Assembly (NCBI GenBank): GCA_963720265.1 | Contig: CAVRET010000001.1 | Coordinates: forward strand, 455,113-519,112 | Source of the DNA: an uncultured bacterium | GTDB taxonomy: Bacteria > Patescibacteriota > Saccharimonadia > UBA4664 | Reading direction: 5' to 3' | Length of the DNA stretch: 64,000 nt | In this document: positions 5,595-45,114 of the stretch, piece by piece | Position numbering within the stretch: position 1 is the stretch's first letter | How the letters are laid out: each line of letters starts with the position of its first letter | Position numbers and translations under genes: made by a program | Notes under the pieces: model-generated | What the model saw: only the letters and a program-made list of their open reading frames with translations | The model's database searches: none | What the model was told of the DNA's origin: nothing

Positions 5595-5624
5595 TCGGAT
5601 TCTAAATTTATTAGCTGTCCTGCG

Positions 5625-6815: not shown

Positions 6816-6870
6816 ATGCCGCTAAGTGTAGCAGAGGGAGCAAAGATTTTTTAGTGGGGAGATGATTATG

Positions 6871-7789
6871 AACCTGAGTCTCAAAACCCCCACATCAGCT
6901 GGTAGCTGAGCAGAATGCGGACATAGTGAACGAAGTAGCCCATGACACTTCGCGGAAATGAGCTGACGAGGTTCAAATGTTCTTTTAGGTAGTCAAAGGT
7001 GCATTCAACCTTGGGCCGCCTGCGAAGCAGGAGGCCCTGCCAGCTGGCCATGGGCTGCTTCTGGTTGCGTCGAGCGGGAGCCAGTATGTAGGTCTGGTGC
7101 AGATCCCACATCTTCTTGCTCATGACTTTGGCCAGGTAACCACCGTCACCCACGGCAATGACAGTTGCGTCGTTGACCAAATGTGGTATTTGCTGCGAGT
7201 CACTCTCATTGGCCGGCGTAAACCAGATGGCGCACAGACTGCCGTTGGCGGCGCAGCTGGCATGGAGCTTAAAACCAAAATGCCACCCTTGGTGGTTCAT
7301 ACCAAAGTCGGCCACTCCTTGGGCGACTTTGTGCCGGTCGGCCCGGACTAGCTTGCAGACCTCAAGCATGGTTGAGTCCATGAAGACGAGAGGCGCGTCC
7401 TTGACCAACAACTGGTCGAGCATGATGAGCATCTGAGGCAGAGCCAGGTGGCATTTACGGACCCACGATTGGTAACTGGGCAAGTGGAACCGGCGGTAAT
7501 AATACGTTTGGGACCAGATATATACACCCTTGAGGGTGCGTTGCGGGGCTACCAGGCAGCTAAATACCAGTAGGGCAACGCACTCATTTTGGTGCAAGAT
7601 GACGGGGCGGCCGCCCAGGGGATTTGCCGGCTGCCTCGGAAAGAAGCTATCTACCACCTCAACCAGTTTGACGATATGATGAGCACGTAAAAGACGCATT
7701 TGCTATTTCCTTGTTTGTTTTTGTCGACGTAACAAGGACAGCCTAGCGTCTTTTTACTTTGGTGGTCCAGGGGTTTTGAGACTCAGGTT
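6871..7789 (-). mobile_element. Insertion sequence, IS5/IS982-like, ~919 bp, with perfect 20-bp terminal inverted repeats AACCTGAGTCTCAAAACCCC and a 4-bp target-site duplication TATG (6867-6870 and 7790-7793)
   Basis: Left end 6871-6890 equals the reverse complement of right end 7770-7789. The flanking TATG direct repeats are seen directly. Encloses a single DDE transposase ORF. Confidence 0.8.
6881..7699 (-). CDS. DDE transposase of IS5/IS982-like family
   Basis: 272-aa ORF entirely inside the IS, with the stop codon inside the left IR. Contains a DDE_Tnp_1-like signature including ...VIAVGDGGYLAK... (the D-x-G-Y motif). Confidence 0.7.
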   Translation of the reverse strand: MRLLRAHHIVKLVEVVDSFFPRQPANPLGGRPVILHQNECVALLVFSCLVAPQRTLKGVYIWSQTYYYRRFHLPSYQSWVRKCHLALPQMLIMLDQLLVKDAPLVFMDSTMLEVCKLVRADRHKVAQGVADFGMNHQGWHFGFKLHASCAANGSLCAIWFTPANESDSQQIPHLVNDATVIAVGDGGYLAKVMSKKMWDLHQTYILAPARRNQKQPMASWQGLLLRRRPKVECTFDYLKEHLNLVSSFPRSVMGYFVHYVRILLSYQLMWGF

Positions 7790-7853
7790 TATGAGTGTTG
7801 AGTTTATCCTGTTTTTCTTGTATAATTTTCTTTCAACAATTCACTGAGATCCG

Positions 7854-8276
7854 GTGGATTGTGAGTTCCGAGAGGAGCATGGAGCAATGGAGGCTGACAA
7901 GGTCAATCCCGCTGTTCTTAGGCGACGCGATATCCCCGGTTCAGGCTGGCTGGTTCAAGAAAGCCTGCTGAACGCGATAAGAGAAAATGGTTCTGCCGCC
8001 GTGAGGTTGGGTGCTGATGGCCCAATCCTTATCCTCACGAGTCCAATGGACCACCGTTCGGGAAAGGTCGTTCAGGCTAAAGTAGATGTAGGTGGCGCGC
8101 TCGATTGCTCGGACTACGATCAGCTTACGATCCGCAGGACCAGCGATATGCTGCCCGGTGCGCCGGTGGCATTCTGGACAGGCGAGGTGATTTCCGGCCA
8201 GGACCTCAAGTGTGCGCTCGTCCTGGTTTCGCATGGCGTGTATTACCTCTACCCGCTTTTGACGGAGGTGGCTTGA
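7854..8276 (+). CDS. Hypothetical protein (140 aa)
   Basis: Plus-strand ORF with balanced composition downstream of an AT-rich promoter-like region with an extended -10 (TTGTATAAT at ~7828-7836). The overlapping minus ORF 7941..8282 is Arg-rich. Weak call. Confidence 0.3.
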   Translation: MDCEFREEHGAMEADKVNPAVLRRRDIPGSGWLVQESLLNAIRENGSAAVRLGADGPILILTSPMDHRSGKVVQAKVDVGGALDCSDYDQLTIRRTSDMLPGAPVAFWTGEVISGQDLKCALVLVSHGVYYLYPLLTEVA

Positions 8277-8417
8277 GCGCACCGCTTATTACCCGACTAT
8301 CGTGACGGGGGAGTGGCGGGTGAGAGCGCCTCAAATCGGGACAATGGCGCTCGACATTATGAGCTCGGGGTTCAATGGGCTGTTGCGGCCGTTTGGTCGC
8401 AACAGCCCATCGTTGTT

Positions 8418-8966
8418 TTACGGTAGTTTGGCATATAACAACACCAGTAGCAGCGCCGCCCAAACGACTTCGGTAATGAGCCCGGGCGGTTCTTGGTACC
8501 ATTGGATGCCGCCCTCTTTGCTCGAGCCCAGGAAACTGCGCAGAGGACGGTAGCCGGGCACATAGCGTTCCATGGTGCGCCGGGAAAAGAAGGCCTCCGG
8601 GATCCAAATAAAATCGGGCGCCCCGGCGCTCACCGCCCCAATAACAATGTTTGCGGTGCGCTGCGGCCAGGCGATGCAGGCAGCAATAGTTACGATGGTG
8701 GCACCGGCGAAATCAATCGAGCCAATGGCCATAAACAGCGGCGTACCAGGGTCCATATCGGCGCCGTTGCCAAAGTGCGGCAGTGCGTCCTGCACCAAAT
8801 GGGATGCAACGCCGGCAGCGGCTAGCTCGACGGGGTTATCGATTGTTAGGCCAAGCAAAATGCCGGTGAGAGCGTGGTTTGTAAGAAGCATGAGCGTATT
8901 GTACCCCATGGAAAGCGCAAGAAATTTTGGCATTTTCTCAGCCAGGCGGTGATATAATGCGCTCAT
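8418..8966 (-). CDS. Membrane-bound metal-dependent hydrolase-like protein (YdjM/DUF457-like); true start probably downstream of 8966
   Basis: Polytopic membrane protein with conserved His residues (TNHALTG..., HLVQDALPHFG) typical of LexA-regulated YdjM-like proteins. Confidence 0.45.
   Translation of the reverse strand: MSALYHRLAEKMPKFLALSMGYNTLMLLTNHALTGILLGLTIDNPVELAAAGVASHLVQDALPHFGNGADMDPGTPLFMAIGSIDFAGATIVTIAACIAWPQRTANIVIGAVSAGAPDFIWIPEAFFSRRTMERYVPGYRPLRSFLGSSKEGGIQWYQEPPGLITEVVWAALLLVLLYAKLP
8950..8958 (+). promoter_or_regulatory. Extended -10 element TGATATAAT located 7 nt upstream of the PBP ATG; candidate leaderless promoter
   Basis: Sequence ggTGATATAATgcgctcATG seen directly; the spacing would place the TSS at or next to the start codon. 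Confidence 0.3.
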
Positions 8967-11946
8967 GCCTCAACGTCGTGTTCGCAACGTCCGCACCGCG
9001 CGTAAGCCGGCTGCGCCAATCGGGGATCAACACACCGGGTGGCGGGGCATTGGCGGTCACGTCAAGCGTTTCTTTTTGTCGTTTACGCCCAAAAACTTTA
9101 AAAGCTACTGGATAAGCCGGGCTGGCCTTGGACGGCTGGGCAAGTTGATTGGCGCATTCTTTTTGTGTATCCTGCTAGTTTTTTTGTGGTACGCCAAGGA
9201 CCTGCCGACGCCAGGTAAAATTAATGCCCGCATTACTGCCGGCACGACTAAATTTTATGACTCAAGCGGCCAGCATTTACTGTACGAAGTGTACGGTGAT
9301 CAAAACCGCGATGTTATTAGCTTTAGCAATATTCCGGCCAACGCGCGCGATGCCACGATTGCGATCGAGGATAAGAATTTTTACAAGGAGGGCTCGTTTA
9401 GCACGCTGGGAATTTTGCGGGCGGCGTTTGTGGATATAACGCACCACGGCCTTTATCAGGGCGGTTCGACCATTACCCAGCAGTATGTAAAGAACGCGCT
9501 TCTTGATCCGACTGACCGGAGTTTTTCGCGCAAGATCAAGGAGTTGATATTGTCGCTTGAGATTGGTCAGTTTTATTCCAAGGACGACATTTTGTCGTTG
9601 TATTTGAACGAGATTCCATACGGTAATAATGCTTATGGCATTGAGAGTGCCTGCAAGACGTTCTTCCCGCAAGACATTAATAAGGCGTCGACGGACCAAT
9701 TGTGCGCGCCCCAACTTGACCTTGGCCAGGCGGCACTGCTGGCCGCGATCTTAAATGCTCCAACGTATTATTCGCCATACGGCGAGAACACTCCGGAGTT
9801 GCTCGACCGCCAGCACACGGTGCTTGATCTCATGGCAGCACAAGGTTATATCTCGCAGGACCAGGCCGATGCTGCCAAATGGGACCAAACTAAACTGCTG
9901 GCTGAGCGCAACCCCAACCAGGATTTGTATGCGAATCTGGATCCGCGCATGGCGAGCTTCGTGCTGTACGCGCAGGATTACCTAGAGAACAAATATGGGG
10001 CCACGACTGTCACTGAAGGTGGGCTCAAGGTTATTACCACCCTTGATTATCAGAAGCAGATCGATGCCTACAATGCAATTCAGCAAGGCATGCCAAATGT
10101 TCGCGCCTTGGGCGGTTCAAACGCCGCCTTTGTGGCGGCTGACCCCAATAGTGGGCACGTGCTTGTCATGCTCGGCTCGTATGATTTTGATGATCCTAAT
10201 TTCGGCAACTACAACGTTGCACTAGCTGACCGTCAACCGGGCTCAAGCTTTAAGCCGATTGTGTACGCCACGCTGTTTGACACCAACGCCAATGCGCCGT
10301 GTGCGAAGAATCGGTCGTGCCCAACCTATGGGCCAGGCACGACAATGTACGATGTGCCAACCAACTTTGGCACGACCGCTGATCCCTATGAGCCGCACAA
10401 CTTCAACGAAAAGACATACGGGACTATAACCATTCGCCAGGCGCTGGCCGGCTCGCTTAACATTCCGGCCGTGAAGGCACTGGCGATGGCGGGCATTGGT
10501 CCGTCGCTGCAGACCGCGCAACGGCTTGGTATTACAACGCTCGGTACTGATGCCAATAATTACGGGTTATCACTGGTGCTGGGTTCGGGCGGGGTCGAAC
10601 TTAACCAGATGACCAACGCGTATGAATCGTTTGCCAACGGAGGCGAACACTACGACGCCACACCGATCCTGAAGGTCTATGACTCGAAGGGCAACGTGAT
10701 GCTCGACAACACTACTCCGCCCAAGCCGACTCAGGCGCTTGACCCGCAGGTCGCGTATTTGATTAACAACATGCTCGATGACAACAATGCTAAGCAGTAC
10801 ATTTTCGGAAATTTGCTAGCCGTGAAAAATAATTGTGGCGACAACTCGAGCACCAATTGTGTGCATGTGGCAGTTAAGACCGGGACGACCGATGATGTGC
10901 GTGATGCCTGGACCATCGGCTACACGAAAAATCTGGTGGCCGGCGTGTGGGCCGGCAACAACGACAATACGCCGATGACTCTTGAAGCAGCTGACATTTC
11001 TGCACCGATTTGGGAAGACTTTATGAATACAGAGCTTAACGGTGACCCCTCTAAGGCCCCTGCGTGGGTGGCGCCGTCCGGTATTAAGACCGTTACGCTT
11101 GATAAGGCGACTGGCCGCGAGGTAACTGCCGGCACAACCAGCAAAACGACTGATATTTTCCCGAGTTGGTACACGCCGATGTCGGCAACCAACGGCCAGA
11201 CCGCTGAGATCGACACAGTGTCGGGCTTGCTGGCGACCAATTGCACGCCGCCGCTCGCCAGGCAGGAAGTTTACTCCAGCGCGATTCAACCGGAGATAAC
11301 CGAGCAGCAGAATCCAGAGCAATATCAGAATTGGCTCGTGGCTCTGCAGCATGCCGGTTATGATACCAGCGGCACGGTGTTGCCGACCGGCAGTGATGAT
11401 GTTCACCATTGCGATGACGTGCAGCCCACTGTCTCAATTTCGGGGGCGGACGGCGGCGGGCCGTATAATCTCAATATTCAGGTCACATCCGGGACCTTCA
11501 CGGCTAACAAGCTTGAGGTCGACTTTGATAGTCAGGTCATTTCGACGCAAACGATTAACGGGTCGGGTGTTTACCAAGTAGCGTACACGCCCACTGATAG
11601 CGGAACTCATACCTTTAAAGCGATCGTGACCGATGCTGGGCTATACCAGTCAACGGCTACGCAAACGGTCAATGTTACGGACACCGGCGGAGGAAATGGT
11701 ACTACACAGGGCTTTAGCGGCGTGTCTCCGACCGATGGGAGTCAGCTGTCATCGAACACGATTAACTTTAGCTGGACAACTGACCCAGGGGCCAACTTCT
11801 ACTCGTTATACGTTGACGGCCAATTGCGCGCCACTACATCCGGCACGAGTCACACGCTTTCCCTTGGTTCAGGCAATCACACCTGGTATGTGCAAGACGA
11901 CCAGGGCAATCAGACGCAGACGGAAAGTTTCCAGATCAGTCCGTAG
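8965..11946 (+). CDS. Class A penicillin-binding protein (PBP1A-type transglycosylase/transpeptidase) with C-terminal Ig/FN3-like repeats
   Basis: GT51 motifs (EDKNFY, GGSTITQQ), transpeptidase SxxK (SSFKP), SxN (SLN), KTG (KTGTT); N-terminal TM anchor; C-terminal ~250-aa beta-rich extension. The start may be later (TTG near 9140). Confidence 0.85.
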   Translation: MPQRRVRNVRTARKPAAPIGDQHTGWRGIGGHVKRFFLSFTPKNFKSYWISRAGLGRLGKLIGAFFLCILLVFLWYAKDLPTPGKINARITAGTTKFYDSSGQHLLYEVYGDQNRDVISFSNIPANARDATIAIEDKNFYKEGSFSTLGILRAAFVDITHHGLYQGGSTITQQYVKNALLDPTDRSFSRKIKELILSLEIGQFYSKDDILSLYLNEIPYGNNAYGIESACKTFFPQDINKASTDQLCAPQLDLGQAALLAAILNAPTYYSPYGENTPELLDRQHTVLDLMAAQGYISQDQADAAKWDQTKLLAERNPNQDLYANLDPRMASFVLYAQDYLENKYGATTVTEGGLKVITTLDYQKQIDAYNAIQQGMPNVRALGGSNAAFVAADPNSGHVLVMLGSYDFDDPNFGNYNVALADRQPGSSFKPIVYATLFDTNANAPCAKNRSCPTYGPGTTMYDVPTNFGTTADPYEPHNFNEKTYGTITIRQALAGSLNIPAVKALAMAGIGPSLQTAQRLGITTLGTDANNYGLSLVLGSGGVELNQMTNAYESFANGGEHYDATPILKVYDSKGNVMLDNTTPPKPTQALDPQVAYLINNMLDDNNAKQYIFGNLLAVKNNCGDNSSTNCVHVAVKTGTTDDVRDAWTIGYTKNLVAGVWAGNNDNTPMTLEAADISAPIWEDFMNTELNGDPSKAPAWVAPSGIKTVTLDKATGREVTAGTTSKTTDIFPSWYTPMSATNGQTAEIDTVSGLLATNCTPPLARQEVYSSAIQPEITEQQNPEQYQNWLVALQHAGYDTSGTVLPTGSDDVHHCDDVQPTVSISGADGGGPYNLNIQVTSGTFTANKLEVDFDSQVISTQTINGSGVYQVAYTPTDSGTHTFKAIVTDAGLYQSTATQTVNVTDTGGGNGTTQGFSGVSPTDGSQLSSNTINFSWTTDPGANFYSLYVDGQLRATTSGTSHTLSLGSGNHTWYVQDDQGNQTQTESFQISP

Positions 11947-15658: not shown

Positions 15659-16135
15659 CTACTTGTCCTTGCCCCAAGGCAAATGGTATTTATTCGATGG
15701 GCCGTCGTAGCCGTCGAACAGATAGAAGTCAGAGACCGTAACTTGGTAGAAACGGCCACCGTCAGGCCGGACGGCGTCGGCTATGAGGTCCGGTCGGTCG
15801 CCGAACCGAGCGCAATAGAGCTTGTAGGCCGGATGGTTGGCATCTATTGGCTCAAGCTCTTTGGCCAGGCCTTCGAAATAGACGCCGCGCACCTTTTGCC
15901 CGAGATGATGCTGAGTGACCATGTTGCCGGCCACATGCGGGTTGGCGGAGATTTCTTGGCTGTGACGGCGTTGGGGCGTGGAGCACCAGTATAAGTTGAG
16001 GCCGTCGTCGTAGGCAAAGTGGACCTCGCAGATCCAGGGCTTGTTGCCAGTACAGGTTGCGAGCGACATGTGAATGACTTGCGGAAGGTATTTTCTAATG
16101 GTAGCTTCGACGTTCATGTGCTCATGATACACCAA
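15659..16135 (-). CDS. Pyridoxamine 5'-phosphate oxidase family (FMN/F420-binding split-barrel) protein
   Basis: 158 aa, with sequence features of the PNPOx-like split-barrel fold. Confidence 0.65.
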   Translation of the reverse strand: MVYHEHMNVEATIRKYLPQVIHMSLATCTGNKPWICEVHFAYDDGLNLYWCSTPQRRHSQEISANPHVAGNMVTQHHLGQKVRGVYFEGLAKELEPIDANHPAYKLYCARFGDRPDLIADAVRPDGGRFYQVTVSDFYLFDGYDGPSNKYHLPWGKDK

Positions 16136-35960: not shown

Positions 35961-36009
35961 CGGCAGATTATGCCAAGAACGAGGGCAGAAATCAAGTCGC
36001 ACCGTTTGC

Positions 36010-36324
36010 TCAGGGCTGGTGGTTGTGCGTCGTGTAACCCTCGATCGTTTGGCCGGCCTGGGTGAACCAATGGCCGATCATGGGAATGTGGCCGAGCGCA
36101 ACGAGCAGCGCCACCAGTAAGGCGGCGCCGATGGTCGCCCCCACAACCCCGCCAAGCCCGGCAAAGACCCCGCGGATGAACGAACTCCAGACTTGGCGGC
36201 GTGTATTGTGCAGCAGCGCTACGTATTCTTTAACCAGCGCTTCTTCGACAGCCCGGCCGAGACGCTCATAATTGGCGGCTTCAGACTTGGCGACCTCTGT
36301 CTTTGCGGCCGGCTTCGCGTCCAC
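36010..36324 (-). CDS. Small membrane protein (104 aa), stress-protein-like
   Basis: Charged N-terminus then a Gly/Ala-rich TM segment. First of three small genes in tandem. Confidence 0.4.
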   Translation of the reverse strand: MDAKPAAKTEVAKSEAANYERLGRAVEEALVKEYVALLHNTRRQVWSSFIRGVFAGLGGVVGATIGAALLVALLVALGHIPMIGHWFTQAGQTIEGYTTHNHQP

Positions 36325-36326
36325 GA

Positions 36327-36827
36327 TTAGCTTTTGTCGTCACTCGAGAATTTTTGACCGGCTGAGCGGGCGAGATGGCGGGTAGTGCGTTCAAGCTCAG
36401 ACATGACGTCGGCGCCTTCGGCCAGCAATTGCTTCACCTGCTTGAGTGCAAGGTCCTTGGTTTGGGCACCGCTGGCGGCGAGGTTGGAAGCGGAGATGCG
36501 CAGGTCTTGTTTCAAAATTTCCGCCCGGCGGATGAGTTCCTGGCTTTCTTCTCTAGCTTCGCCGGTGAGTTCTTTGGCAGCCTCGCGCAAGCTATCAACC
36601 CGACCGCTCATTTCATCGCTCATGTTCTCGAGCCGGATCATAAAGTCCTTATATGTACCTTTGACTTTGCCCTTAATGTCGGCGCGGGTTTCCTTGCCGC
36701 TCTTGGGAGCGAGCAGGACACCGGCAGCGGCGCCGACTAAAGCCCCGATTAATGTCCCCCTCCAAAACGATCGTCTCATAGCATTTATCCTTTCCTTGTT
36801 GTCGTCGTCATTACTCATCTGACCCAT
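36327..36827 (-). CDS. YtxH-like (DUF948-type) general stress protein
   Basis: N-terminal TM (LIGALVGAAAGVLLAPKSGKETR) followed by a long amphipathic helical region. Start placed at an internal Met. Confidence 0.45.
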   Translation of the reverse strand: MGQMSNDDDNKERINAMRRSFWRGTLIGALVGAAAGVLLAPKSGKETRADIKGKVKGTYKDFMIRLENMSDEMSGRVDSLREAAKELTGEAREESQELIRRAEILKQDLRISASNLAASGAQTKDLALKQVKQLLAEGADVMSELERTTRHLARSAGQKFSSDDKS

Positions 36828-37089
36828 GCTTTCTCTCCTTCTTTGGCTTGCCGACAAACCGCCTGACCAACGCCGCCATAATCGACGACGCGGCCACGGG
36901 GGCAAGTCGCTGTGAAATAGTGGCGGCAAGATCGGAGATGTTCTCGGTCGCACGCTCCGCGCGCTGGGCGACTCGGCGCACGTTCTGAACCACAGCAATA
37001 AGCAGGCTTACGAGCACGATACTGAGTATTAGTAGGACAATCATGCCTACCGATAACAGGATTACCAAGGTCTGATCGACTGACGTCAC
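36811..37089 (-). CDS. DUF948-like small membrane protein
   Basis: N-terminal TM helix and a charged helical tail (VQNVRRVAQRAERATENISDLAATISQR). Confidence 0.4.
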   Translation of the reverse strand: MTSVDQTLVILLSVGMIVLLILSIVLVSLLIAVVQNVRRVAQRAERATENISDLAATISQRLAPVAASSIMAALVRRFVGKPKKERKHGSDE

Positions 37090-37159
37090 CTAGTTCATCT
37101 GCCTCTTGTTACTTCTTCTAAAATACTTGTTCATTTTAGCAGGCGCAAGGCACCCGTGG

Positions 37160-37819
37160 TCATTGGTCGTTTTCACGAGAGGTTAATTCACGGCGAGCAG
37201 CACGCTTGGTGGCAGCGGCAGCGGTAGCGGCTTTGGCGGCGCGTTTGGCAACTTTGGCTACCCTCTTCATTGGGCTGACATCATGTGAGCGGCGGATAAC
37301 CACCCATTCTTTGCGCTCGATGACCGAGTTGGGAATGACGTGCAACACACCTTTGTCGTCGCGTAGACGGGTGCGACGGGCGTCCATGTGGGCAATAACG
37401 CCAAGCGTAGGCGTTTCGCCGGCAATGACTTCGTCCCCAATGTTGAAATCGGGATCTCTGGCCAGGAAAATGCCGGCTATGATATCGGAGACAAGCGTGG
37501 AGCCACCGGCCGCCATGGCGAGACCTAATGCTGCCACCGAGCCGGTGAAGAAGTAGATAACACCAGAAAAGCCAAGCTCACCCAGCAAGGCAATAGACAG
37601 GAAGATCCACATCACGGTTTCGATAATACCGGCCAGTACATCGCGCAGACCCGGCGGCATGTGGGTGAGCCGCATCATGAGCTTAAATACCCGGATGGAC
37701 AGGCGAATGATGACAATGCCCAGGAGCAGATCAAAGAGCGTCGCCGGTAGACGTGGGGTAATATAATTGACCGCGTTAATAACGTGAGCGGTGAAGGTGG
37801 ACGAGAGTTGGAAATTCAT
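37160..37819 (-). CDS. Mechanosensitive ion channel family protein (MscS-like)
   Basis: TM helices followed by the MscS beta-domain signature (...DPDFNIGDEVIAGETPTLGVIAHMDARRTRLRDDKGVLHVIPNSVI...), basic C-terminus. Confidence 0.7.
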   Translation of the reverse strand: MNFQLSSTFTAHVINAVNYITPRLPATLFDLLLGIVIIRLSIRVFKLMMRLTHMPPGLRDVLAGIIETVMWIFLSIALLGELGFSGVIYFFTGSVAALGLAMAAGGSTLVSDIIAGIFLARDPDFNIGDEVIAGETPTLGVIAHMDARRTRLRDDKGVLHVIPNSVIERKEWVVIRRSHDVSPMKRVAKVAKRAAKAATAAAATKRAARRELTSRENDQ

Positions 37820-37910
37820 AAATACTAACGATTGCGCAATAAGCTTGCGGCTATTTTAGCACGAGCGGCTGAGTATTACTTGAGCTCACCTTTCATACGG
37901 CCTCGCCGGG

Positions 37911-38414
37911 TCATAAGAATAGTTCAACCCACTTGGGTGCACTGGGCGTATATTTTTCCGGATTATGGTCAAGCTCTTGCCGCAGCCGATCCCCAGGAAC
38001 CCAGGCTATTTGGGCCACTTCGGCTTCACGGATGGTGAATTTTTCCAGCGGCCAGTCGGACTCGGCCGTAAACCACTGGACAAAGAATTGGCGTCCGTCG
38101 TCGCCGTTTATGAGCACCTTTGGTCCAAGCTGAAAAATAGCGCCGGTGAGGCCAACTTCTTCCTCGGCCTCTTTGTAGATGTTTTGCTCGTACGTTTCCC
38201 CTGGCTCAACAGTACCGGCGGCGGCCGGGCCCCATTTCCCAGGGTTATTGCTTTTCGTGAAAGCGCGCCGCGCCATTAGAATTTCACCCTTGGAATTTGT
38301 GAGCCAGAGTGAGGCTACGCGGTAAACGTCGCCGTGCGTTAGCTCGCGGCGTGGCTTCGAGCCAATGACCTGATCATGTTCATCGACAGTTGTTGCGAGT
38401 TCGTCTGCCGCCAT
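37911..38414 (-). CDS. NUDIX hydrolase
   Basis: Nudix box GTVEPGETYEQNIYKEAEEEVGL; the last gene of the gat operon (shares the stop/start position with gatB). Confidence 0.7.
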   Translation of the reverse strand: MAADELATTVDEHDQVIGSKPRRELTHGDVYRVASLWLTNSKGEILMARRAFTKSNNPGKWGPAAAGTVEPGETYEQNIYKEAEEEVGLTGAIFQLGPKVLINGDDGRQFFVQWFTAESDWPLEKFTIREAEVAQIAWVPGDRLRQELDHNPEKYTPSAPKWVELFL

Positions 38415-39865
38415 TATTTTCCGAGCCGCTCCTTGAGAAGCTTTGTGATGAGGGGCGGGTTGCCTTTGCCTTGGGTGGCCTTCATGGCGGCGCCAACGAG
38501 CGCGCCGAGAGCCCTAGCGTTGCCGGCTTTGTAATCTGCGGCCGCGGCTGGATTGGCAGCCAGAACGTCGTCGACTACCTTGGCGAGCTCATTAACGTTT
38601 GATTCCTGGATGAGGTTCATTTCGCGGGCAAGTTCGGCTGGATCATGGTCGTAATGGGGTTCGGCGCGGAGCTTGGCGAGTAGCTCGCGGGAGTTGGTGG
38701 AGCTGAGTTCGGATTTTGCAGCCATGTCGGCGACACGATTTAAGATCTCGGGTGTCAGATGCGATTCGGGGCCGTGTTCTTCGCGCTGTTTAATCTCCGG
38801 CCCGGTGAGCCAGGTAAAGACGAAACGCGCGTGCTTGGGTTCAAGTCTGTGGGCCTTAAACCAGAGCTTGGCAAGTTCCGGCTCAGCCACCAGTACTTCG
38901 GCCTCCTTGTGGGCGATTTTGGCCTCGATGAGAAGTTTGCGTAAGTCATTGGGCAGGAAATCAAAGTCACCGGCGGCATCGGCCATGGCTTTCGGGATTA
39001 CCAGCGGGGGTAAGTCGGGTTCCGGGAAGTAGCGGTATTCATCGGCATCTTCTTTGGAGCGCATGGCGTAGGTTTTTTGCTTGGCCTCGTTCCAGCCGCG
39101 GGTTTCCTGGCGGATTTTTTCGCCTTTTTCGACCGCTTCGATTTGGCGCTGCGTCTCGTATTCAATGGCGCGCTCGACGTTGCGAAAACTGTTGAGATTC
39201 TTGGTCTCGGTGCGGGTACCAAAGGGTAGCCCTGGCTTGTGGACGCTGACGTTTACATCAAAGCGCATGTTGCCGTAATAGAGATCCGCATCCGAGGCGC
39301 CGGTGTAGCGGGCCAGGTTGTGCAGCTCCTGGGCGTAGGCTTTGGCTTCGGCGGCACTGCGCATGTCGGGCTCGGAGACGATTTCGAGCAGCGGAGTTTC
39401 GGCGCGGTTGAGGTCAACCAGCGAGTAATCCGCGCCGTCCGGGTGGGTGAGCTTACCGGCGTCGCCTTCGAGGTGGGCGCGGGTGATGCCGACGCGCATG
39501 GTTTTGCCCTCCACCGGGAATTCGACCCAGCCGTTCGGCACGATAGGCTCGTCGAACTGGGTGATTTGGTAGCCTTTGGGGAGGTCGGGGTAGAAATAGT
39601 TCTTGCGATCAAATTTGGTGTGAAGCTTTTCCGGATATGTGGCGTTTAGGGCTTTTCCAAGCTGTAATGCCAGCTCGACCGCGCGTTTGTTGAGTACTGG
39701 TAAGGCGCCCGGCTGACCGGTGCAGATTTCGCAAACGTGGGTGTTGGGCTCGGCGTCTCGCGAATCGTTGTCGCATGAGCAAAACAACTTGGATTTGGTC
39801 GCGAGCTGCACGTGCGTTTCCAGGCCGATGACTACTTCATATTGGTCCCGCAATTTCGTATCCAT
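38414..39865 (-). CDS. gatB: Asp-tRNA(Asn)/Glu-tRNA(Gln) amidotransferase subunit B
   Basis: 483 aa with the conserved GatB N-terminus (LETHVQL..., CSCDND) and C-terminal YqeY-like domain. Confidence 0.9.
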   Translation of the reverse strand: MDTKLRDQYEVVIGLETHVQLATKSKLFCSCDNDSRDAEPNTHVCEICTGQPGALPVLNKRAVELALQLGKALNATYPEKLHTKFDRKNYFYPDLPKGYQITQFDEPIVPNGWVEFPVEGKTMRVGITRAHLEGDAGKLTHPDGADYSLVDLNRAETPLLEIVSEPDMRSAAEAKAYAQELHNLARYTGASDADLYYGNMRFDVNVSVHKPGLPFGTRTETKNLNSFRNVERAIEYETQRQIEAVEKGEKIRQETRGWNEAKQKTYAMRSKEDADEYRYFPEPDLPPLVIPKAMADAAGDFDFLPNDLRKLLIEAKIAHKEAEVLVAEPELAKLWFKAHRLEPKHARFVFTWLTGPEIKQREEHGPESHLTPEILNRVADMAAKSELSSTNSRELLAKLRAEPHYDHDPAELAREMNLIQESNVNELAKVVDDVLAANPAAAADYKAGNARALGALVGAAMKATQGKGNPPLITKLLKERLGK

Positions 39866-40287
39866 TACAACGTAAACTCCTTGATTTTCCAGGGCCGTTC
39901 GTTCAAGTCAGAGAATCGGATCCACTTGGGCGTCACTTTAAAATACATGATCCCCGGTTCGTGCTCCCATTTTTTGGCTCGAGGGTTTTTAGCGAAGTAG
40001 ACCTGCTTGCACTGGTCTAACTCGTCGCCGCTCAGTTCCGCGGCTGTGCCTTCGAGTTGAACAGTTATGTTTTTATCCCAGCCAATAACAAGTGCGACAC
40101 GCGGATCACGTTTCAGGTTGGCATTTTTACGTGAAGTAGCGTAGCAATCGATAATTATCTCCAGGTTTGGCGTGCTCGCGAACTCGACCACGGCGGCTTG
40201 GGGTCGGCCATCTTCGGCCAGTGTTGAGATGGTCATGATGACTGTTTTTTCAACCAATTCCTGGACCATGTGGAGTTCGGGGTTCAT
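39865..40287 (-). CDS. Pyridoxamine 5'-phosphate oxidase family (split-barrel) protein
   Basis: 140-aa PNPOx-like ORF; GC noticeably lower (~50%) than the window average. Confidence 0.6.
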   Translation of the reverse strand: MNPELHMVQELVEKTVIMTISTLAEDGRPQAAVVEFASTPNLEIIIDCYATSRKNANLKRDPRVALVIGWDKNITVQLEGTAAELSGDELDQCKQVYFAKNPRAKKWEHEPGIMYFKVTPKWIRFSDLNERPWKIKEFTL

Positions 40288-40288
40288 G

Positions 40289-40672
40289 TCATAGATTCTC
40301 GTCGATGAATTTCTTGAGCGCCAACAAATCTTGTTGTGTGTGGTCGTAAAAATGGGTTCTTATTCCGACCGACTCAGCACTTTTGACCGCTTCAGGATTG
40401 TGCTCAAAGTAGACAACGTCTGCTGGCTTCAGGCCAAAATGACTCAGCATTTTTTCGAAGTATTCGGGATCAGTTTTCTCCGGATTGTGCCGCAACGTGA
40501 AGATTTCGTACGGACACCTCTCCAGGTGGAATTCTTTGAATTGCTCGTCATTGGCACCGGTTAAGACTATTTTCTCGTTGGGATAGCTTTCAAGCAGCTT
40601 GTGCATTTCCTCGAAAACAGTCCCGTCTTCCAAAATTACACCATTTATGGCATCGACTAGGATTGTTTTCAT
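40289..40672 (-). CDS. Small HAD-like hydrolase-family protein (tentative)
   Basis: 127-aa ORF beginning MKTILVDAINGV... (a degenerate DxD-like start). GC ~47%, the lowest in the window. Confidence 0.4.
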   Translation of the reverse strand: MKTILVDAINGVILEDGTVFEEMHKLLESYPNEKIVLTGANDEQFKEFHLERCPYEIFTLRHNPEKTDPEYFEKMLSHFGLKPADVVYFEHNPEAVKSAESVGIRTHFYDHTQQDLLALKKFIDENL

Positions 40673-41148
40673 AGCACGACCCCGTGTGGCACGACCTGGC
40701 GTTCGTTGCCAAAGTTGGCGGAATCGAAATAGCCGACCTCAGTTGGCGTGATTTTAACAAATTTCCAGTGGGCGGCGGACCCGAGGTAAGCGGCCAACTC
40801 GGATGGTATGCCGGGGATTTCGGGAGAACGATCGTAGTAGATGCGGTGGGCGGCCGCGACCTGCTCGTCGGGCAAGAGCGTTGCCTGACCGCTGGCTTGC
40901 AGCCCGATAACATCGCCGATCGGAGACTGGCCGGTACTGAATATGGCGATCGCTACTTCAGGGTTGGTCTTGAGGTTTTGCATATGGCGCGACTCGGGTT
41001 GCGAGATGAAATAGAAGTTGAGGGCGTTGTCGTACACAAAATAGACCGGATTGCTCCATGGGCCTTTGGCGCCAGCGGTTGCGAGGGCCATAAATTGGGT
41101 GGCGTCGAGGGCCGTTTTGACATGTACTGGCCAGTTGAATGATTTCAT
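40669..41148 (-). CDS. Pyridoxamine 5'-phosphate oxidase-like FMN-binding family protein
   Basis: 159-aa split-barrel-like ORF, translationally coupled (ATGA overlaps at both ends). Confidence 0.5.
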   Translation of the reverse strand: MKSFNWPVHVKTALDATQFMALATAGAKGPWSNPVYFVYDNALNFYFISQPESRHMQNLKTNPEVAIAIFSTGQSPIGDVIGLQASGQATLLPDEQVAAAHRIYYDRSPEIPGIPSELAAYLGSAAHWKFVKITPTEVGYFDSANFGNERQVVPHGVVL

Positions 41149-41615
41149 AACGCTCCCAAGGCTTTAAGACCGGTCTCGAAATCGGAGATAGCTTCTTTGG
41201 CTTGACTTGGTACCAGGTCGAAGCCAACTTCGTGCGCTAGGGCATTACGCAGCTTGTGTGCGCGCCAGATGTGGTCGTAGACCTCGCGGTCGGCGAAGCG
41301 CGAACGGGCAGCTTTGAGGCGGTCGCCCATGCTGTCACCTGCAACACCTTGTTGGCGCATGATGTGATCGAACAACTTGTCGGCTTCGTTTATGGCTTGG
41401 CGCATGCCGTTTCCTCCACTCGCCGCCATGGCCTCAATGGTCGCCCAGCGGGTGAAAATTTGTTCGCGGTTTAGGGGTTCAATGCCGTGGGCTCTGGCAG
41501 TGGCGTGGCGCCTTTTGGCCCGGCGGCGCTTGGGGTCGCCGGCGACCAGCGCCAACACCAGTACACCGCCAACGACTGCCAGTAGTAAAAAGGAAAAAAC
41601 CGCAGACGGGCTCAT
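41145..41615 (-). CDS. Hypothetical membrane-anchored protein
   Basis: 156 aa, N-terminal TM helix then a basic stretch (KRRRAKRRHA). Overlaps the gatA stop by 4 nt. Confidence 0.4.
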   Translation of the reverse strand: MSPSAVFSFLLLAVVGGVLVLALVAGDPKRRRAKRRHATARAHGIEPLNREQIFTRWATIEAMAASGGNGMRQAINEADKLFDHIMRQQGVAGDSMGDRLKAARSRFADREVYDHIWRAHKLRNALAHEVGFDLVPSQAKEAISDFETGLKALGAL

Positions 41616-43066
41616 TCTTTCACCGTGCCTTTGGCGTGTTCGATGAGGCCTTCGACAGCACAGGCGGCGGCCAGGAGCTTTCGTTCGGCCCGTTGCGGTG
41701 CCATCAGTTGGAGCCCGATCGGCAGCACACCGATTTTGCCAAATGGGATGGAAATGGCCGGAATACCAACGAGGTTGGCGGCCACCGTCATGATATCTTC
41801 AAGGTAGAGAGCAAGGGGGTCGCCGGATTTGGCGCCGAGTTTAAAGGCCGAAGACGGCGACGTTGGTCCGAGCAGCAGGTCGTATTTTTTAAAGGCGTCG
41901 TTGAATTGCTCGATGAGCTTGGTGCGGACCTTCTGTGCCCGCTTGTAATAAGCATCGTAATAGCCGCTTGAGAGCACGTAGGTGCCGATCATTATGCGGC
42001 GCTTGGCTTCAGGCCCAAAGCCTTCGGCGCGGGATAGGAAGTAGGTGTCTTCGAGGCTCTTGGCGTTTGGTGAACTGTAGCCGTAGCGCACGCCGTCGTA
42101 GCGCGCGAGGTTGGAGCTAATTTCGGCCGGAACCAAAATGTAGTAGGCGGCCAGCGCCTGCTCGGTGGCGGGCACACTCACCTCTTCAACGATTGCACCG
42201 TGCTTTTTAAGCAAGGCAGCGGTGGCTTCGAGTTGGGATTTGATCTCGGGGTCCAAGCCTTCGCCTAAATATTCTTTAATAAGGCCGATCTTGAGGCCGG
42301 CAAGGTGGCTATGCGTAATTGCATACCCTTCCGGGTCGCGGGGGGTGGTGGTGGCGTCGGACGGATGCGGGCCGGCGAAACAATCGAGCACCAGGCCGGC
42401 GTCGGCCACCGTGCGGGTGAGCGGGCCCATGACGTCGGTGGAGCTGGCCATAGCAACGACGCCGGTACGCGGACTGAGACCGTAGGTGGGCTTGAGCCCA
42501 ACCACGCCGCAGAGCGCGGCCGGCTGGCGAATGGAACCGCCAGTATCGGAGCCAATGGCAAATGCCACTTGGCCGAGCGCCACGCTGGCTGCTGATCCAC
42601 CGGAGCTGCCGCCGGGCACACGTTCGGAATCTGCCGGGTTTTTGGTTGGGCCAAAGTCGGAGTTTTCGGTGGAGGTGCCGTGAGCAAAGGCGTCGAGGTT
42701 GGACTTGGCGACCAGTACTGCACCCGCTTGCATGAGGCGTACTATGACCGGGCCCTGGTACGGCGCTGTAAACGGCTCGAGAATATGGCTGGCGGCCGTA
42801 GTGTGTGTGCCAAATGTGAGGTAGTTATCCTTAGCCGCAAACGGCAATCCAGCCAGTGGCAGGTGCTCGCCGGCTTTGACCCGCTTATCGACCGCACGCG
42901 CGTGCTCGAGCGCATCAGGGTTGATCTCTAGCATGGTATGGAATTCCTCGGTGGCTCCCATGCGGTCGAGGCTAGCCTGGGTAAGTTCAACGGCACTTAG
43001 ACGGCCGGCCTGGACGTCGGCCGCGAGCTCTGCTAGCGGGCGGGTGAGGTCGGCAAGTTTAGCCAT
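41612..43066 (-). CDS. gatA: Glutamyl-tRNA(Gln)/Asp-tRNA(Asn) amidotransferase subunit A
   Basis: Amidase signature region (GGSSGGSAASVALG), 484 aa. Confidence 0.9.
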   Translation of the reverse strand: MAKLADLTRPLAELAADVQAGRLSAVELTQASLDRMGATEEFHTMLEINPDALEHARAVDKRVKAGEHLPLAGLPFAAKDNYLTFGTHTTAASHILEPFTAPYQGPVIVRLMQAGAVLVAKSNLDAFAHGTSTENSDFGPTKNPADSERVPGGSSGGSAASVALGQVAFAIGSDTGGSIRQPAALCGVVGLKPTYGLSPRTGVVAMASSTDVMGPLTRTVADAGLVLDCFAGPHPSDATTTPRDPEGYAITHSHLAGLKIGLIKEYLGEGLDPEIKSQLEATAALLKKHGAIVEEVSVPATEQALAAYYILVPAEISSNLARYDGVRYGYSSPNAKSLEDTYFLSRAEGFGPEAKRRIMIGTYVLSSGYYDAYYKRAQKVRTKLIEQFNDAFKKYDLLLGPTSPSSAFKLGAKSGDPLALYLEDIMTVAANLVGIPAISIPFGKIGVLPIGLQLMAPQRAERKLLAAACAVEGLIEHAKGTVKE

Positions 43067-43352
43067 TGAGTACTCGTTTTACCAAGATGTAGCCGTCTTT
43101 GTGGGCTGGAGCGCCGGCTAGCAACTGCTCGCGTGACAGCCCCGGGCGAACTTCGTCTTCGCGCCAGACGTCTTCCAGACCAGTAACTTGATCAGTTGGG
43201 GGCGTATCTGAAATGTCGACCTTTTGCAGCTGACCAACAAACGTTAAAATGCGGCCGATTTCCTCAGTCATGGCTTCGGCCTCATGCTCATTTAGGCCGA
43301 TGCGCGCGAGCCGGGCAATGCGCTCAACTTCTTCCACACTAATCTTTGACAT
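43059..43352 (-). CDS. gatC: Asp/Glu-tRNA amidotransferase subunit C
   Basis: MSKISVEEVERIARLARIGL...; a small protein overlapping the gatA start. The longer ORF to 43388 adds an implausible N-terminus. Confidence 0.8.
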   Translation of the reverse strand: MSKISVEEVERIARLARIGLNEHEAEAMTEEIGRILTFVGQLQKVDISDTPPTDQVTGLEDVWREDEVRPGLSREQLLAGAPAHKDGYILVKRVLNG

Positions 43353-43444
43353 GGGGTTAGTATAGGGCGAAATGAGGCTGCCTGCCAAGTCGCGTGGGCG
43401 TAAGGGGTGATTTTGACAGAAGGGCTTGTGCGTGAGATTCTAAT

Positions 43445-43753
43445 GTGACCCACAATCTTCTTCCCGAGGGGGGAGCGTACATCATGAGCACTGCTGAAGC
43501 GCAGACAGGCACCGCAGGCCAGAGCGGCCCGACGGTCAGCGATCACCGCAACCGGCTTGACGAGTTCCTGACGCTGAAGGTGGTACTCGCCTTCTGCATT
43601 CTGGTCGTGGCGGGGCTCCTTGCCGGGGCTCTTGAAATGAACCAGCGTTATTTCGCGAACCTGCTGATCTTCTTCCTGGCGATATTGGTCGTCGCGATTG
43701 CAGGCGCCGCCTTTGTCATCGAATTCGATATCCATCGACGACAACGAACATAA
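43445..43753 (+). CDS. Small hydrophobic protein with two predicted TM helices
   Basis: 102-aa ORF (possibly starting at an internal Met) followed immediately by a strong intrinsic terminator. Confidence 0.35.
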   Translation: MTHNLLPEGGAYIMSTAEAQTGTAGQSGPTVSDHRNRLDEFLTLKVVLAFCILVVAGLLAGALEMNQRYFANLLIFFLAILVVAIAGAAFVIEFDIHRRQRT

Positions 43754-43762
43754 CGACGCGAT

Positions 43763-43810
43763 GTTTCGTAGGGCTCCGGCCTGGGGAGCCCTACGAAACA
43801 TTATTTTTTG
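43763..43810. terminator. Rho-independent terminator: 15-bp stem GTTTCGTAGGGCTCC/GGAGCCCTACGAAAC, 6-nt loop, followed by ATTATTTTTTG
   Basis: Seen directly. It serves the plus-strand small gene; the stem is symmetric, so it may also terminate the convergent minus-strand gene. Confidence 0.8.
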
Positions 43811-43818
43811 TCGGCTGA

Positions 43819-44220
43819 TTATGAGGGCGTGATGGTGAGCCGGAGCTTGCGGGTCTTGGGCCCGTCGAGCTCAATGAGAACGAGGTGTTGCCAGGTGCCG
43901 ACCATGAGTTTGCCGGCCTGAACCGGCAGCGACACCGACGGCCCTATAACTGAGGCCAGAAAATGGTCGGGCGCGTGCTCGGGGTCGTGCGGGTGCCGCC
44001 ACGGCCTCATGGGGATCATGAGGTCGAGCGCGTCGAGCAAGTCGCGGTCGGTGCCGGGGTCGAGGTTGGCGGTGGTGACGGCACAGGCTGAATGCAGTAC
44101 GGTCAACGTAGCCAGGCCGGTAGTGCGGGCCGGGATGAGACTTTGAACCTGATCAGTCAGGTCAATTACCTGCTTCCTGCCTTGGGTTTTGACAGATAAA
44201 TCCACTGTTATTCCATGCAA
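43819..44220 (-). CDS. YjbQ/UPF0047-family protein (secondary thiamine-phosphate synthase-like)
   Basis: ...LHGITVDLSVKTQGRKQVIDLTDQV... matches the YjbQ N-terminal core. No ATG is in frame near it; a TTG start near 44220 is likely. The track ORF to 44346 adds an Arg-rich extension that overlaps the next gene. Confidence 0.5.
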   Translation of the reverse strand: MHGITVDLSVKTQGRKQVIDLTDQVQSLIPARTTGLATLTVLHSACAVTTANLDPGTDRDLLDALDLMIPMRPWRHPHDPEHAPDHFLASVIGPSVSLPVQAGKLMVGTWQHLVLIELDGPKTRKLRLTITPS

Positions 44221-44633
44221 TACATTGGACAGGCAATTTGTGAAGCGGAGGTCCCTTGGACATGCCCGCCGCAAGGCGCGCACGTGGGGTGTGGCACGGG
44301 TTGGACCGTGGGCTGCGGCGTGGGCGTGAGAACCGGTGAAGGCCAAGGCGTAGGACTCGGTACCGGATACATGATGCTCGACGGGGTCGGCGGTAGTATG
44401 CTGTTGCCCTGCGGCGCTGTGGTCTGTGACGAGGCCGGGACACCAGCCTGTGCGCCTGCTTGTAACTCAGCCGGCGACTGAGGGGACTGGTTTTGCGACA
44501 GTGTGGCCTGCGTCTGGCTCGCCGTTACTTGCATAGTCGGGGTAGCGCCCGGCACTCGTCCCGGTGGCCAAATAAGTGTACCGGCCGCAATAACGACAAT
44601 TACCGTACTAGTCGCGATCTGAATGATTCGCTT
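44208..44633 (-). CDS. Secreted/anchored Pro/Thr/Gln-rich protein with Cys-containing C-terminus
   Basis: Start at MKRIIQIATSTVIVVIAAGT (signal/TM), then low-complexity P/T/S/Q repeats. Confidence 0.35.
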   Translation of the reverse strand, partial: KRIIQIATSTVIVVIAAGTLIWPPGRVPGATPTMQVTASQTQATLSQNQSPQSPAELQAGAQAGVPASSQTTAPQGNSILPPTPSSIMYPVPSPTPWPSPVLTPTPQPTVQPVPHPTCAPCGGHVQGTSASQIACPMYCME

Positions 44634-44709
44634 CATGCTTCCACCTAATATCACCGTTAGCATAACGCGCGGGCACTACACCAATCAAGCGTTAGGATAT
44701 CGGGCAGTA

Positions 44710-45114
44710 TTAGTGGGCCAAGATGGCGCCGGCCAACACGATGCCGACCAGGTGATAGCCTTGGTCAATGACGTAGAGTTTCTTAGAGCCGCTTTGAAAT
44801 ACGTTGTTGATAAGAGCCGTGGTGCCAACGAAGCCAACCCACAACTTGAGCCCTAAGTAGCCGCCGCGCATAGCCATACCGGTGGTGCCGGTGGCATTAA
44901 CGAGGTAAGCCTCGACGCACACCAGTACGACGATGGCGAGCAGGGTGGTGAGCATAGAACCGGCAGCCATGTTCATCTCCGACTGCTTTTTCTTAACTTC
45001 TTTTTGCCACTGTTTCATGAATGCGACCGGTGAATACCAGACCGCGCCGAGGGCAAAGTAGACCACTACGGCGAGCAACACCCACCATACCGAGATGCCA
45101 AAAACCATCATCAT
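44710..45114 (-). CDS. DUF1761-like integral membrane protein
   Basis: 134 aa with four hydrophobic helices. Confidence 0.45.
   Translation of the reverse strand: MMMVFGISVWWVLLAVVVYFALGAVWYSPVAFMKQWQKEVKKKQSEMNMAAGSMLTTLLAIVVLVCVEAYLVNATGTTGMAMRGGYLGLKLWVGFVGTTALINNVFQSGSKKLYVIDQGYHLVGIVLAGAILAH

Follow-up and report, generated by a model that had tools for sequence, protein, structure and literature searches.

A predicted membrane-anchored HEPN-fold gene and a variable slot of small enzymes between gatA and gatB in Saccharibacteria

Organisms that lack the direct synthetases depend on the amidotransferase GatCAB alone for Gln-tRNA and Asn-tRNA, and the level of GatCAB sets translational fidelity. 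Its genes gatC, gatA and gatB are contiguous in most bacteria, as they are in the Firmicutes and other outgroups among our GatB-anchored loci, while several lineages in our sample have gatB far from gatA. In mycobacteria, the phosphofructokinase gene pfkA separates gatA from gatB, directly adjoining and in the same orientation, and the locus (gatC-gatA, then pfkA-gatB) has been described as a pair of operons containing a single metabolic gene (PMC7541841). The locus studied here shares with the mycobacterial one an unrelated gene between gatA and gatB, but differs in that the intervening genes number four and are joined by overlapping stop and start codons, that one of the four is conserved in the lineage, and that there is a variable slot. 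The first-pass annotation called this architecture unusual and undescribed, which these precedents show to be overstated.

In the cultivated Saccharibacterium Southlakia epibionticum ML1, a gene for a protein of 139 aa, SEML1_0535, shares 4 nt with gatA and 1 nt with gatB (Wang et al. 2023, Cell; PMC10633639, Tables S1 and S2). The same study flags the gene as a member of a core, Patescibacteria-enriched family, gives Tn-seq calls of growth defect, growth defect and essential (GD/GD/ES), and assigns it a HEPN-type ECOD match (e1wtyA1, residues 26-135) and the predicted name DUF4145. It appears there as a hypothetical protein in the supplementary tables only, the main text being silent on it (PMC10633639). 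Our literature searches turned up no publication that connects HEPN with gat genes or treats the gat operon of Saccharibacteria.

In the window, by which we mean the whole stretch of 64,000 nucleotides analysed and which derives from a genome of Saccharibacteria (TM7), gatC, gatA, four small genes (O1 to O4), gatB and a NUDIX hydrolase gene run head to tail on the minus strand, as had been claimed. GatC (43059..43352; 97 aa from the ATG at 43352) scores 70 bits against PF02686 and 77.3 against TIGR00135 (cutoff 47.1), GatA (41612..43066; 484 aa) 447 bits against PF01425 and 519.3 against TIGR00132 (cutoff 481.1), and GatB (38414..39865; 483 aa) 377 bits against PF02934, with a match to PF02637, and 551.8 against NF004012 (cutoff 338), each being above the cutoff of its own equivalog model. 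The gatA stop (41612) and the gatB start (39865) are separated by 1746 nt and four genes, so gatCAB is non-contiguous here. O1 (41145..41615; 156 aa) encodes a transmembrane helix and a predicted HEPN-fold domain, O2 (40669..41148; 159 aa) a PNPOx-like split barrel of type A, O3 (40289..40672; 127 aa) a capless HAD-like protein, and O4 (39865..40287; 140 aa) a PNPOx-like split barrel of type B; the NUDIX hydrolase (37911..38414; 167 aa; PF00293, 63 bits) is IDI/YfcD-like. The earlier list of products, two split-barrel proteins and a degenerate HAD-like protein, agrees with the matches of O2 and O4 to PF01243 and of O3, with altered motifs, to TIGR01509, but its order was wrong: the HAD-like gene stands between the two PNPOx-like genes and does not follow them.

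Read from the sequence, gatC and gatA overlap by 8 nt, and ATGA overlaps are found at gatA/O1, O1/O2 and O2/O3. Coupling by ATGA had been proposed for the inserted genes throughout and holds at these three junctions, whereas O3 and O4 are separated by a 1-nt spacer (TGAcATG) with no overlap, and O4/gatB and gatB/NUDIX overlap as TAATG. A consensus scan placed a candidate operon promoter at 43359..43388 on the minus strand (TTGGCA, an 18-nt spacer and TATACT; 10/12 consensus matches), whose end is 6 nt from the gatC ATG, and a transcript starting there may be leaderless. Promoter-like sites across the region are only slightly more than chance (6 against 3.3±1.7 expected), terminator-like sites number 10 against 9.3±3.4, and since no internal promoter or terminator stands out, the co-transcription proposed earlier stays a reasonable hypothesis. 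Judged by this geometry, the string from gatC to the NUDIX gene would be co-transcribed and translationally coupled.

We argue, with a probability of roughly 0.7, that the gat operon of Saccharibacteria has the form gatC, gatA, a gene for a transmembrane HEPN-fold protein, a cargo slot, gatB and a second slot, and that the genes between gatA and gatB form three layers that differ in age. The ancient layer would be O1, which has become fixed between these two genes throughout Saccharibacteria and behaves as an operon member. A GatB-anchored search found an O1 homologue at this place in 24 of about 27 Saccharibacteria-type loci, and an O1-anchored search of 80 metagenome loci found gatA upstream and gatB downstream in 58, one gat flank in 19 (the other side cut by a contig end in 10) and neither in 3. 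These counts contradict the first-pass view of a single four-gene insertion. The gene is not universal in Saccharibacteria (L078 and L019 are exceptions), and outside the clade of the window it directly abuts gatB. Its family comprises 1934 representatives at 50% identity.

The O1 protein has an N-terminal transmembrane helix (about residues 3-25), which a basic linker joins to a domain (about residues 50-156) that is, in the structure predicted with family representatives as homologues, a helical bundle of HEPN fold. The basic stretch after the helix makes a cytoplasmic location of this domain the most likely one. No curated HEPN sequence model matched O1 significantly and no Pfam family passed its threshold, some homologues having sub-threshold matches (E 0.01-0.06) to HEPN_RiboL-PSP, HEPN_Swt1, pEK499_p136 and HEPN_Cthe2314, and the O1 profile returned nothing meaningful from PDB sequences (RanGAP and S20 at E >0.01). 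Its motif H120-K-L-R123-N124-x3-H128 (R-N-x3-H) contains R123-N-A-L-A-H128, which conforms to Rx4-6H. The Rx4-6H motif is invariant in 59 close representatives and lost in about 11 of the 23 gatB-anchored homologues (about half being without the motif His), and is thus not a family-wide constant. A metagenome scan for O1 (12 closer sequences) was seeded on WxAHK[LV]RN, so that its count of 90 out of 103 with R and H intact is biased and gives no frequency.

Relatives of the HEPN fold include tRNA- and mRNA-cleaving nucleases. O1 differs from minimal HEPN proteins (AF0298/UPF0332; toxins of HEPN-MNT pairs such as SO_3166 and the Aphanizomenon HEPN toxin) by its N-terminal membrane anchor, its place inside a housekeeping operon and the lack of an adjacent partner: no MNT nucleotidyltransferase gene lies beside O1, whose neighbours are gatA and a PNPOx-like gene (gatB in most relatives). 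SEML1_0535 is like O1 in its place between gatA and gatB, its similar size and its HEPN-type assignment, and on position, size and fold it is likely the O1 counterpart. The window differs in its cargo slot, gatB following directly after SEML1_0535 in S. epibionticum. The Tn-seq phenotype of SEML1_0535 could be polar on gatB.

The second, clade-level layer would be the small enzymes at the O1-gatB junction, each locus carrying a subset of one order and the window having kept O2 and O4. A neighbour-joining tree of GatA and GatB groups the window with L090, L003, L001, L086, L002 and L004 at 100% bootstrap and pairs it with L090 at 100%. The slot holds O2-O3-O4 in the window, O2-histidine phosphatase-NUDIX-HD in L090, O4 in L094, O4-NUDIX in both L095 and L086, NUDIX in L001, a partial NUDIX gene in L002, histidine phosphatase-HD in L003, histidine phosphatase in L004, and HD in L096 (a metagenome locus outside the tree). 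One order fits the contents of these roughly ten relatives, namely the PNPOx-like gene of type A (O2), that of type B (O4), histidine phosphatase, NUDIX and HD, and no gene pair has a conflicting order among the compared slots. An O2 homologue with 62% identity stands directly after O1 in L090-L093, L090 being the closest relative, and O4 homologues with 64-70% identity stand between O1 and gatB or NUDIX in L086, L094 and L095; these identities are near those of the flanking genes (gatA 68-78%, gatB 69-74%, O1 49-72%). The colinearity in about ten genomes, together with the neighbour-joining tree, suggests an older array from which different lineages have lost different genes. The lineages with O4 (the window, L086, L094 and L095) are not sisters, which calls either for multiple losses or for recombination in the conserved flanks that passed the gene between relatives. 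The phylogenetic check proposed earlier for the PNPOx-like proteins gave a weak grouping for O4: the in-slot copies group at 68% bootstrap, and L086 falls outside the group.

O2 and O4 score 56.3 and 61.5 bits against PF01243 (PNPOx_N; gathering score 28.1), the general stress protein 26/PNPOx-like split-barrel family, and their size is typical of its single-domain FMN-binding members. They fall in none of the named subfamilies, both being below every NCBIfam cutoff (pdxH, F420-dependent PPOX classes, YhbP), with a best score of 58.7 against 79 for TIGR03618, and are probably flavin-binding split-barrel proteins. With a mutual identity of 25%, O2 and O4 were rejected as recent duplicates.

The third layer would be a lineage-specific step that placed O3 between O2 and O4, O3 being present in the gat operon only in the lineage of the window among the loci read. 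Its family has 2236 homologues, the best 120 of which are 67-77% identical and 127-147 aa long (nearly all 127-130), and D7, T38, K66, E90 and H91 are invariant in it. O3 is just over the cutoff of the HAD-IA phosphatase model TIGR01509 (33.6 against 29.4; YigB/YihX-like) and below the Pfam gathering scores for PF00702 and PF13419. It shares with HAD-IA phosphatases the nucleophilic Asp, the Thr of motif II (T38) and the Lys of motif III (K66), all three invariant. It differs from them in having no cap domain at 127 aa, an invariant Ile in place of the Asp+2 general acid/base, so that motif I (D7-A8-I9) is not DxD, and Glu-His (E90-H91) in place of the (D/E)D acidic pair of motif IV. We infer that O3, whose Patescibacteria family is very conserved, is a non-canonical HAD-like protein. 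The NUDIX gene that follows gatB likewise occurs in the window only, no homologue of it being found in 95 loci at E 1e-3; relatives have other genes or none between gatB and an MscS-like gene, which marks a second variable slot.

The low GC of the genes nearest gatB had been taken as a sign of horizontal acquisition. The dip is real, although the window has 57.2% GC and not about 60%, and O3, at 44.3%, lies below the 47-50% given for the pair. O3 and O4 (49.9%) have lower GC than any other gene in the window, lying about 3.7 and 2.1 sd under the mean of 66 ORFs (57.5%, sd 3.6), while O1 (59.0%) and O2 (56.7%) are native-like. A recent cassette comprising at least O3 and O4, possibly all four genes, could have entered the essential operon and left this mark, and the presence of O3 at the site in the lineage of the window only would fit it. 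So would the patchy distribution of the O3 and O4 families across Patescibacteria in accessory-looking contexts, and the relatives of O4 in DPANN archaea. We nevertheless regard a recent cassette as improbable. Amino-acid content combined with native codon usage predicts 48.3% GC for O3 and 52.1% for O4, amino-acid composition thus accounting for about 70% of the deficit in each. The synonymous-codon likelihoods of O3 and O4 (-1.18 and -1.13) are like those of native small genes (-1.13 to -1.17). Of the GC and codon-usage checks proposed earlier, the first shows atypical base composition and the second a native-like synonymous codon choice. O3-family genes lie 9-12 GC points below their host locus in all three other loci examined; the GC of O4 is well under its flanks in L086 and L094 and nearly equal in L095. 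Because amino-acid content explains most of the deficit, codon choice looks native and the O3 family has low GC elsewhere, the dip is weak evidence for transfer.

The surroundings of the cargo also argue against a recent cassette. Searches for flanking repeats gave chance-level matches of 10-16 nt only, no integrase, transposase or other mobility gene lies in the string, and positions 36000-45000 contain no Rfam RNA family. Synteny, named earlier as a check on horizontal transfer, divides the genes, and in part yields the shared arrangement that the first-pass annotation would have taken as a sign of ancestry: O1, O2 (in L090) and O4 (in L086, L094 and L095) stand at the same site in relatives, and recent transfer is largely refuted for these three, whereas O3 is absent there. 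For O3, which retains a residual deficit in GC3 and codon usage (44.3% GC where 48.3% is expected), an earlier acquisition from a Saccharibacterium of lower GC is conceivable. We would like to point out, as a caution, that a GC dip inside an operon can be mostly a matter of amino-acid composition and need not mark recent transfer.

The cargo enzymes could instead be functionally tied to GatCAB or tRNA charging, for example in by-product or cofactor handling, and be selected for co-expression. The same enzyme classes recur in the slot of many relatives and tight coupling is maintained, as such a tie would predict, but none of the cargo genes occurs throughout the clade and O1 abuts gatB outside it. 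Elsewhere, homologues of O3 have unrelated contexts, and neither these nor those of O4 adjoin gat genes; in other lineages the same junctions hold cargo of unrelated kinds (a restriction-modification system, a cyclophilin, MurI). GatCAB is not known to require a flavin. We consider a functional tie unlikely, and the kinds of enzyme in the slot (NUDIX, HD, histidine phosphatase, HAD and PNPOx) suggest nucleotide or cofactor housekeeping, not a direct role in transamidation. That mis-assembly joined unrelated low-GC DNA into the operon is hardly credible, for although the source is a metagenome assembly with a local GC dip, the reading frames are unbroken and overlap their neighbours at either end, O2 and O4 occupy the same site in relatives, and an independent Logan assembly of run ERR11523669, possibly built from the same reads as the source assembly, has the same gatA'-O1-O2-O3-O4-gatB' string at 100% protein identity.

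In the layered operon that we favour, a single transcript would start at the promoter-like site just upstream of gatC, and overlapping stop and start codons would couple translation along the string. Passenger genes in a small genome would thus draw their expression from a promoter that serves essential genes, with no signals of their own. The variable slot may show how promoter-poor, reduced genomes keep and shed accessory enzymes, by insertion into an essential operon.

The association of a HEPN-fold gene with gat genes is the more interesting lead. The near-obligate position of O1 between gatA and gatB, the large size of its family and the Tn-seq calls of its likely counterpart point beyond accidental hitch-hiking. 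We tentatively propose, as a possibility that is less probable than not, that the O1 family is a lineage-specific partner of GatCAB in Saccharibacteria, either a fourth subunit or tether that would hold the transamidation machinery at the membrane, or a tRNA-directed RNase or RNA-binding module that would monitor mischarged Glu-tRNAGln and Asp-tRNAAsn. The idea is directly testable, since a genetically tractable Saccharibacterium has a gene that agrees with O1 in position, size and fold. Kept in this operon across a whole lineage of ultrasmall episymbionts, O1 is a concrete candidate for a partner or regulator of indirect tRNA aminoacylation that has so far gone unrecognised.

The gat genes of the window lie in one unbroken minus-strand run of eight called genes: gatC (43059-43352), gatA (41612-43066), O1 (41145-41615, 156 aa), O2 (40669-41148, 159 aa), O3 (40289-40672, 127 aa), O4 (39865-40287, 140 aa), gatB (38414-39865) and, last in the string, an IDI/YfcD-like NUDIX gene (37911-38414). 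The three gat genes score above the cutoffs of NCBIfam equivalog models. O2 and O4, which are PNPOx-like proteins of types A and B, match PF01243 (PNPOx_N), the HAD-like O3 is barely over the cutoff of TIGR01509 (HAD-IA), and O1, a transmembrane helix with a HEPN-fold domain, matched no Pfam family. Reading of the sequence gave an 8-nt overlap at gatC/gatA, ATGA overlaps at gatA/O1, O1/O2 and O2/O3, a 1-nt spacer between O3 and O4, and TAATG overlaps at O4/gatB and gatB/NUDIX. The identical string is present in a second assembly, from a public run. The first-pass annotation had taken the string for a gatCAB operon split by an insertion of four genes, partly of lower GC, and had suggested horizontal acquisition. 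Its overlapping junctions and the GC dip at O3 and O4 were borne out by the sequence and by a comparison of 66 ORFs, with slight corrections to the gene order and GC figures. A third PNPOx-like gene (15659-16135, minus strand, 158 aa) is 28% identical to O2, so that at least three split-barrel paralogues lie inside 64 kb.

A promoter-like site (TTGGCA, 18-nt spacer, TATACT; 43350-43388, minus strand) ends 6 nt before the ATG of gatC, and the operon may be transcribed with little or no leader. A small plus-strand ORF for a two-helix membrane protein (43445-43812, 102 aa) diverges from gatC and is followed by the strongest terminator-like site of the region, a hairpin with an 18-bp stem and a T-run (43760-43812); this gene and hairpin are the predicted 5' boundary of the operon. 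Since promoter-like and terminator-like sites inside the gene string showed no excess over chance, we infer that its co-transcription and translational coupling are plausible.

The window was placed by a GatB-anchored scan with one genome per species. The best GatB matches (60-68% identity) came from MAGs labelled Saccharibacteria, Saccharimonadales or Patescibacteria and included a complete 1.32-Mb genome, which indicates that the window belongs to Saccharibacteria. In a neighbour-joining tree of GatA and GatB, the window pairs with locus L090 within a clade that includes L003, L001, L086, L002 and L004, both groupings having 100% bootstrap.

O1 is old, and it is part of the gat operon. The GatB-anchored search found its homologue between gatA and gatB in 24 Saccharibacteria-type loci, mostly abutting both, while gatCAB is contiguous in Firmicutes and other outgroups. 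An O1-anchored search of metagenome contigs found gatA upstream and gatB downstream at 58 of 80 O1 loci, a single gat flank at 19 (a contig end removes the other side in 10 of these) and neither gat gene at 3. The O1 family has 1934 representatives at 50% identity (E ≤ 0.001). In a structure predicted from 59 family members (pLDDT 92.4), a basic linker joins a transmembrane helix at the N-terminus to a helical domain. W57, D79, W117, H120, R123, N124 and H128 are invariant in the 59 sequences and form an R-N-x3-H motif among them. As the motif histidine is missing in about 11 of 23 gatB-anchored homologues, catalysis may not be what is conserved in O1. None of the curated HEPN models reached threshold for the family, with scattered matches below it.

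In the cultivated Saccharibacterium Southlakia epibionticum, the likely counterpart of O1, judged by position, size and fold, is SEML1_0535. It has 139 aa, shares 4 nt with gatA and 1 nt with gatB, is listed as a core family enriched in Patescibacteria, has a HEPN-type ECOD assignment with the predicted name DUF4145, and received Tn-seq calls of GD/GD/ES (PMC10633639 Tables S1, S2); the main text of that paper does not discuss it. These data are consistent with O1 as an old operon member, and the Tn-seq calls may stem from polarity on gatB.

The slot between O1 and gatB is filled in every member of the window's clade, and outside the clade this gap is mostly below 30 nt. The slot holds O2-O3-O4 in the window, O2-HisPhos-NUDIX-HD in L090, O4 in L094, O4-NUDIX in L095 and L086, NUDIX in L001, part of a NUDIX gene in L002, HisPhos-HD in L003, HisPhos in L004, and HD in L096, a metagenome locus outside the tree. 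The sets of all ten loci fit the single order O2 < O4 < HisPhos < NUDIX < HD with zero conflicts. Shared cargo genes are 62-70% identical, similar to the flanking gat genes, and the in-slot copies of O4 cluster weakly in the O4 tree. The simplest reading would be an older cargo array thinned through differential loss; cargo may also have been swapped among relatives via the conserved flanks.

Among the loci compared, O3 is the sole slot gene seen at the gat site in the window alone. Its family is very large and highly conserved (2236 matches; the top 120 share 67-77% identity, and almost all of them have 127-130 aa), and homologues elsewhere sit in unrelated accessory contexts. Of the HAD motif residues, O3 retains the nucleophilic Asp, Thr of motif II and Lys of motif III; the Asp+2 position is an invariant Ile, and the motif IV acidic pair is Glu-His. 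The proposed insertion is partly supported: O3 is particular to the window among these loci, O1 is an old operon member, and O2 and O4 occur in relatives' slots.

O3 (44.3% GC) and O4 (49.9%) are the lowest of the 66 ORFs (mean 57.5%, sd 3.6), yet amino acids with native codon usage predict 48.3% and 52.1%, so that amino-acid sequence accounts for roughly 70% of either deficit. Their synonymous-codon likelihoods resemble those of O1, gatC, the NUDIX gene and the MscS-like gene. Genes of the O3 family are 9-12 points under host-locus GC in the three other loci examined. Homologues of O4 have distinctly low GC in L086 and L094, and in L095 they do not. Neither repeats nor mobility genes nor RNA elements were found flanking the cargo. 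The dip is genuine, but it is a weak sign of recent transfer.

Several other features of these loci were observed. In the complete genome CP064960 (L002), GatA falls into two overlapping tblastn segments (5110-6517) and the slot NUDIX gene (7020-7331) matches over residues 47-150 only; sequencing errors may have shifted the frame here, or the genes may be genuine pseudogenes. In another Patescibacteria contig (L087, 4394-5423), an O4-type PNPOx gene directly follows the gene of an alpha/beta hydrolase of the Ser_hydrolase type. A hydrolase with 39% identity to it fills the gat slot of L052 (7378-7986), so that the same small genes are again neighbours in different genomes. Within Saccharibacteria, two loci depart from the O1 rule: in L078 the gene between gatA and gatB (7578-7994) encodes an unrelated hydrophobic protein of 138 aa, and in L019 gatB directly follows gatA (6617-9434). 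The junctions to both sides of O1 look generally permissive, since in other Saccharibacteria they carry genes of quite different kinds (L110 1847-4320; L157 453-1286; L166 1897-2619; L171 1103-1771; L125 616-1413; L161 3588-3923). Judged by eye, these encode a restriction-modification system, in which a Fic-like protein accompanies an apparent restriction enzyme and DNA methyltransferase, as well as a MurI-like racemase, a MazG-like protein and, between gatA and O1, cyclophilin-type isomerases. Downstream of gatB, before the MscS-like gene, is a second variable slot, which holds the NUDIX gene in the window, a 219-aa HAD in L002 (9475-10134) and unrelated proteins of no known kind in L001 (9631-10086) and L090 (7989-8528), and is empty in L003, L004 and L086.

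An interrupted gat operon is not new in itself, since mycobacteria have pfkA between gatA and gatB (PMC7541841) and gatB lies apart from gatA in several lineages among our GatB-anchored loci. In the searchable literature we found no description of a lineage-wide membrane-anchored HEPN-fold gene within the gat operon, nor of a colinear, decaying cargo array beside it. We regard the cargo genes as modestly interesting and the linkage of a HEPN-fold gene to gat as a worthwhile, testable lead.
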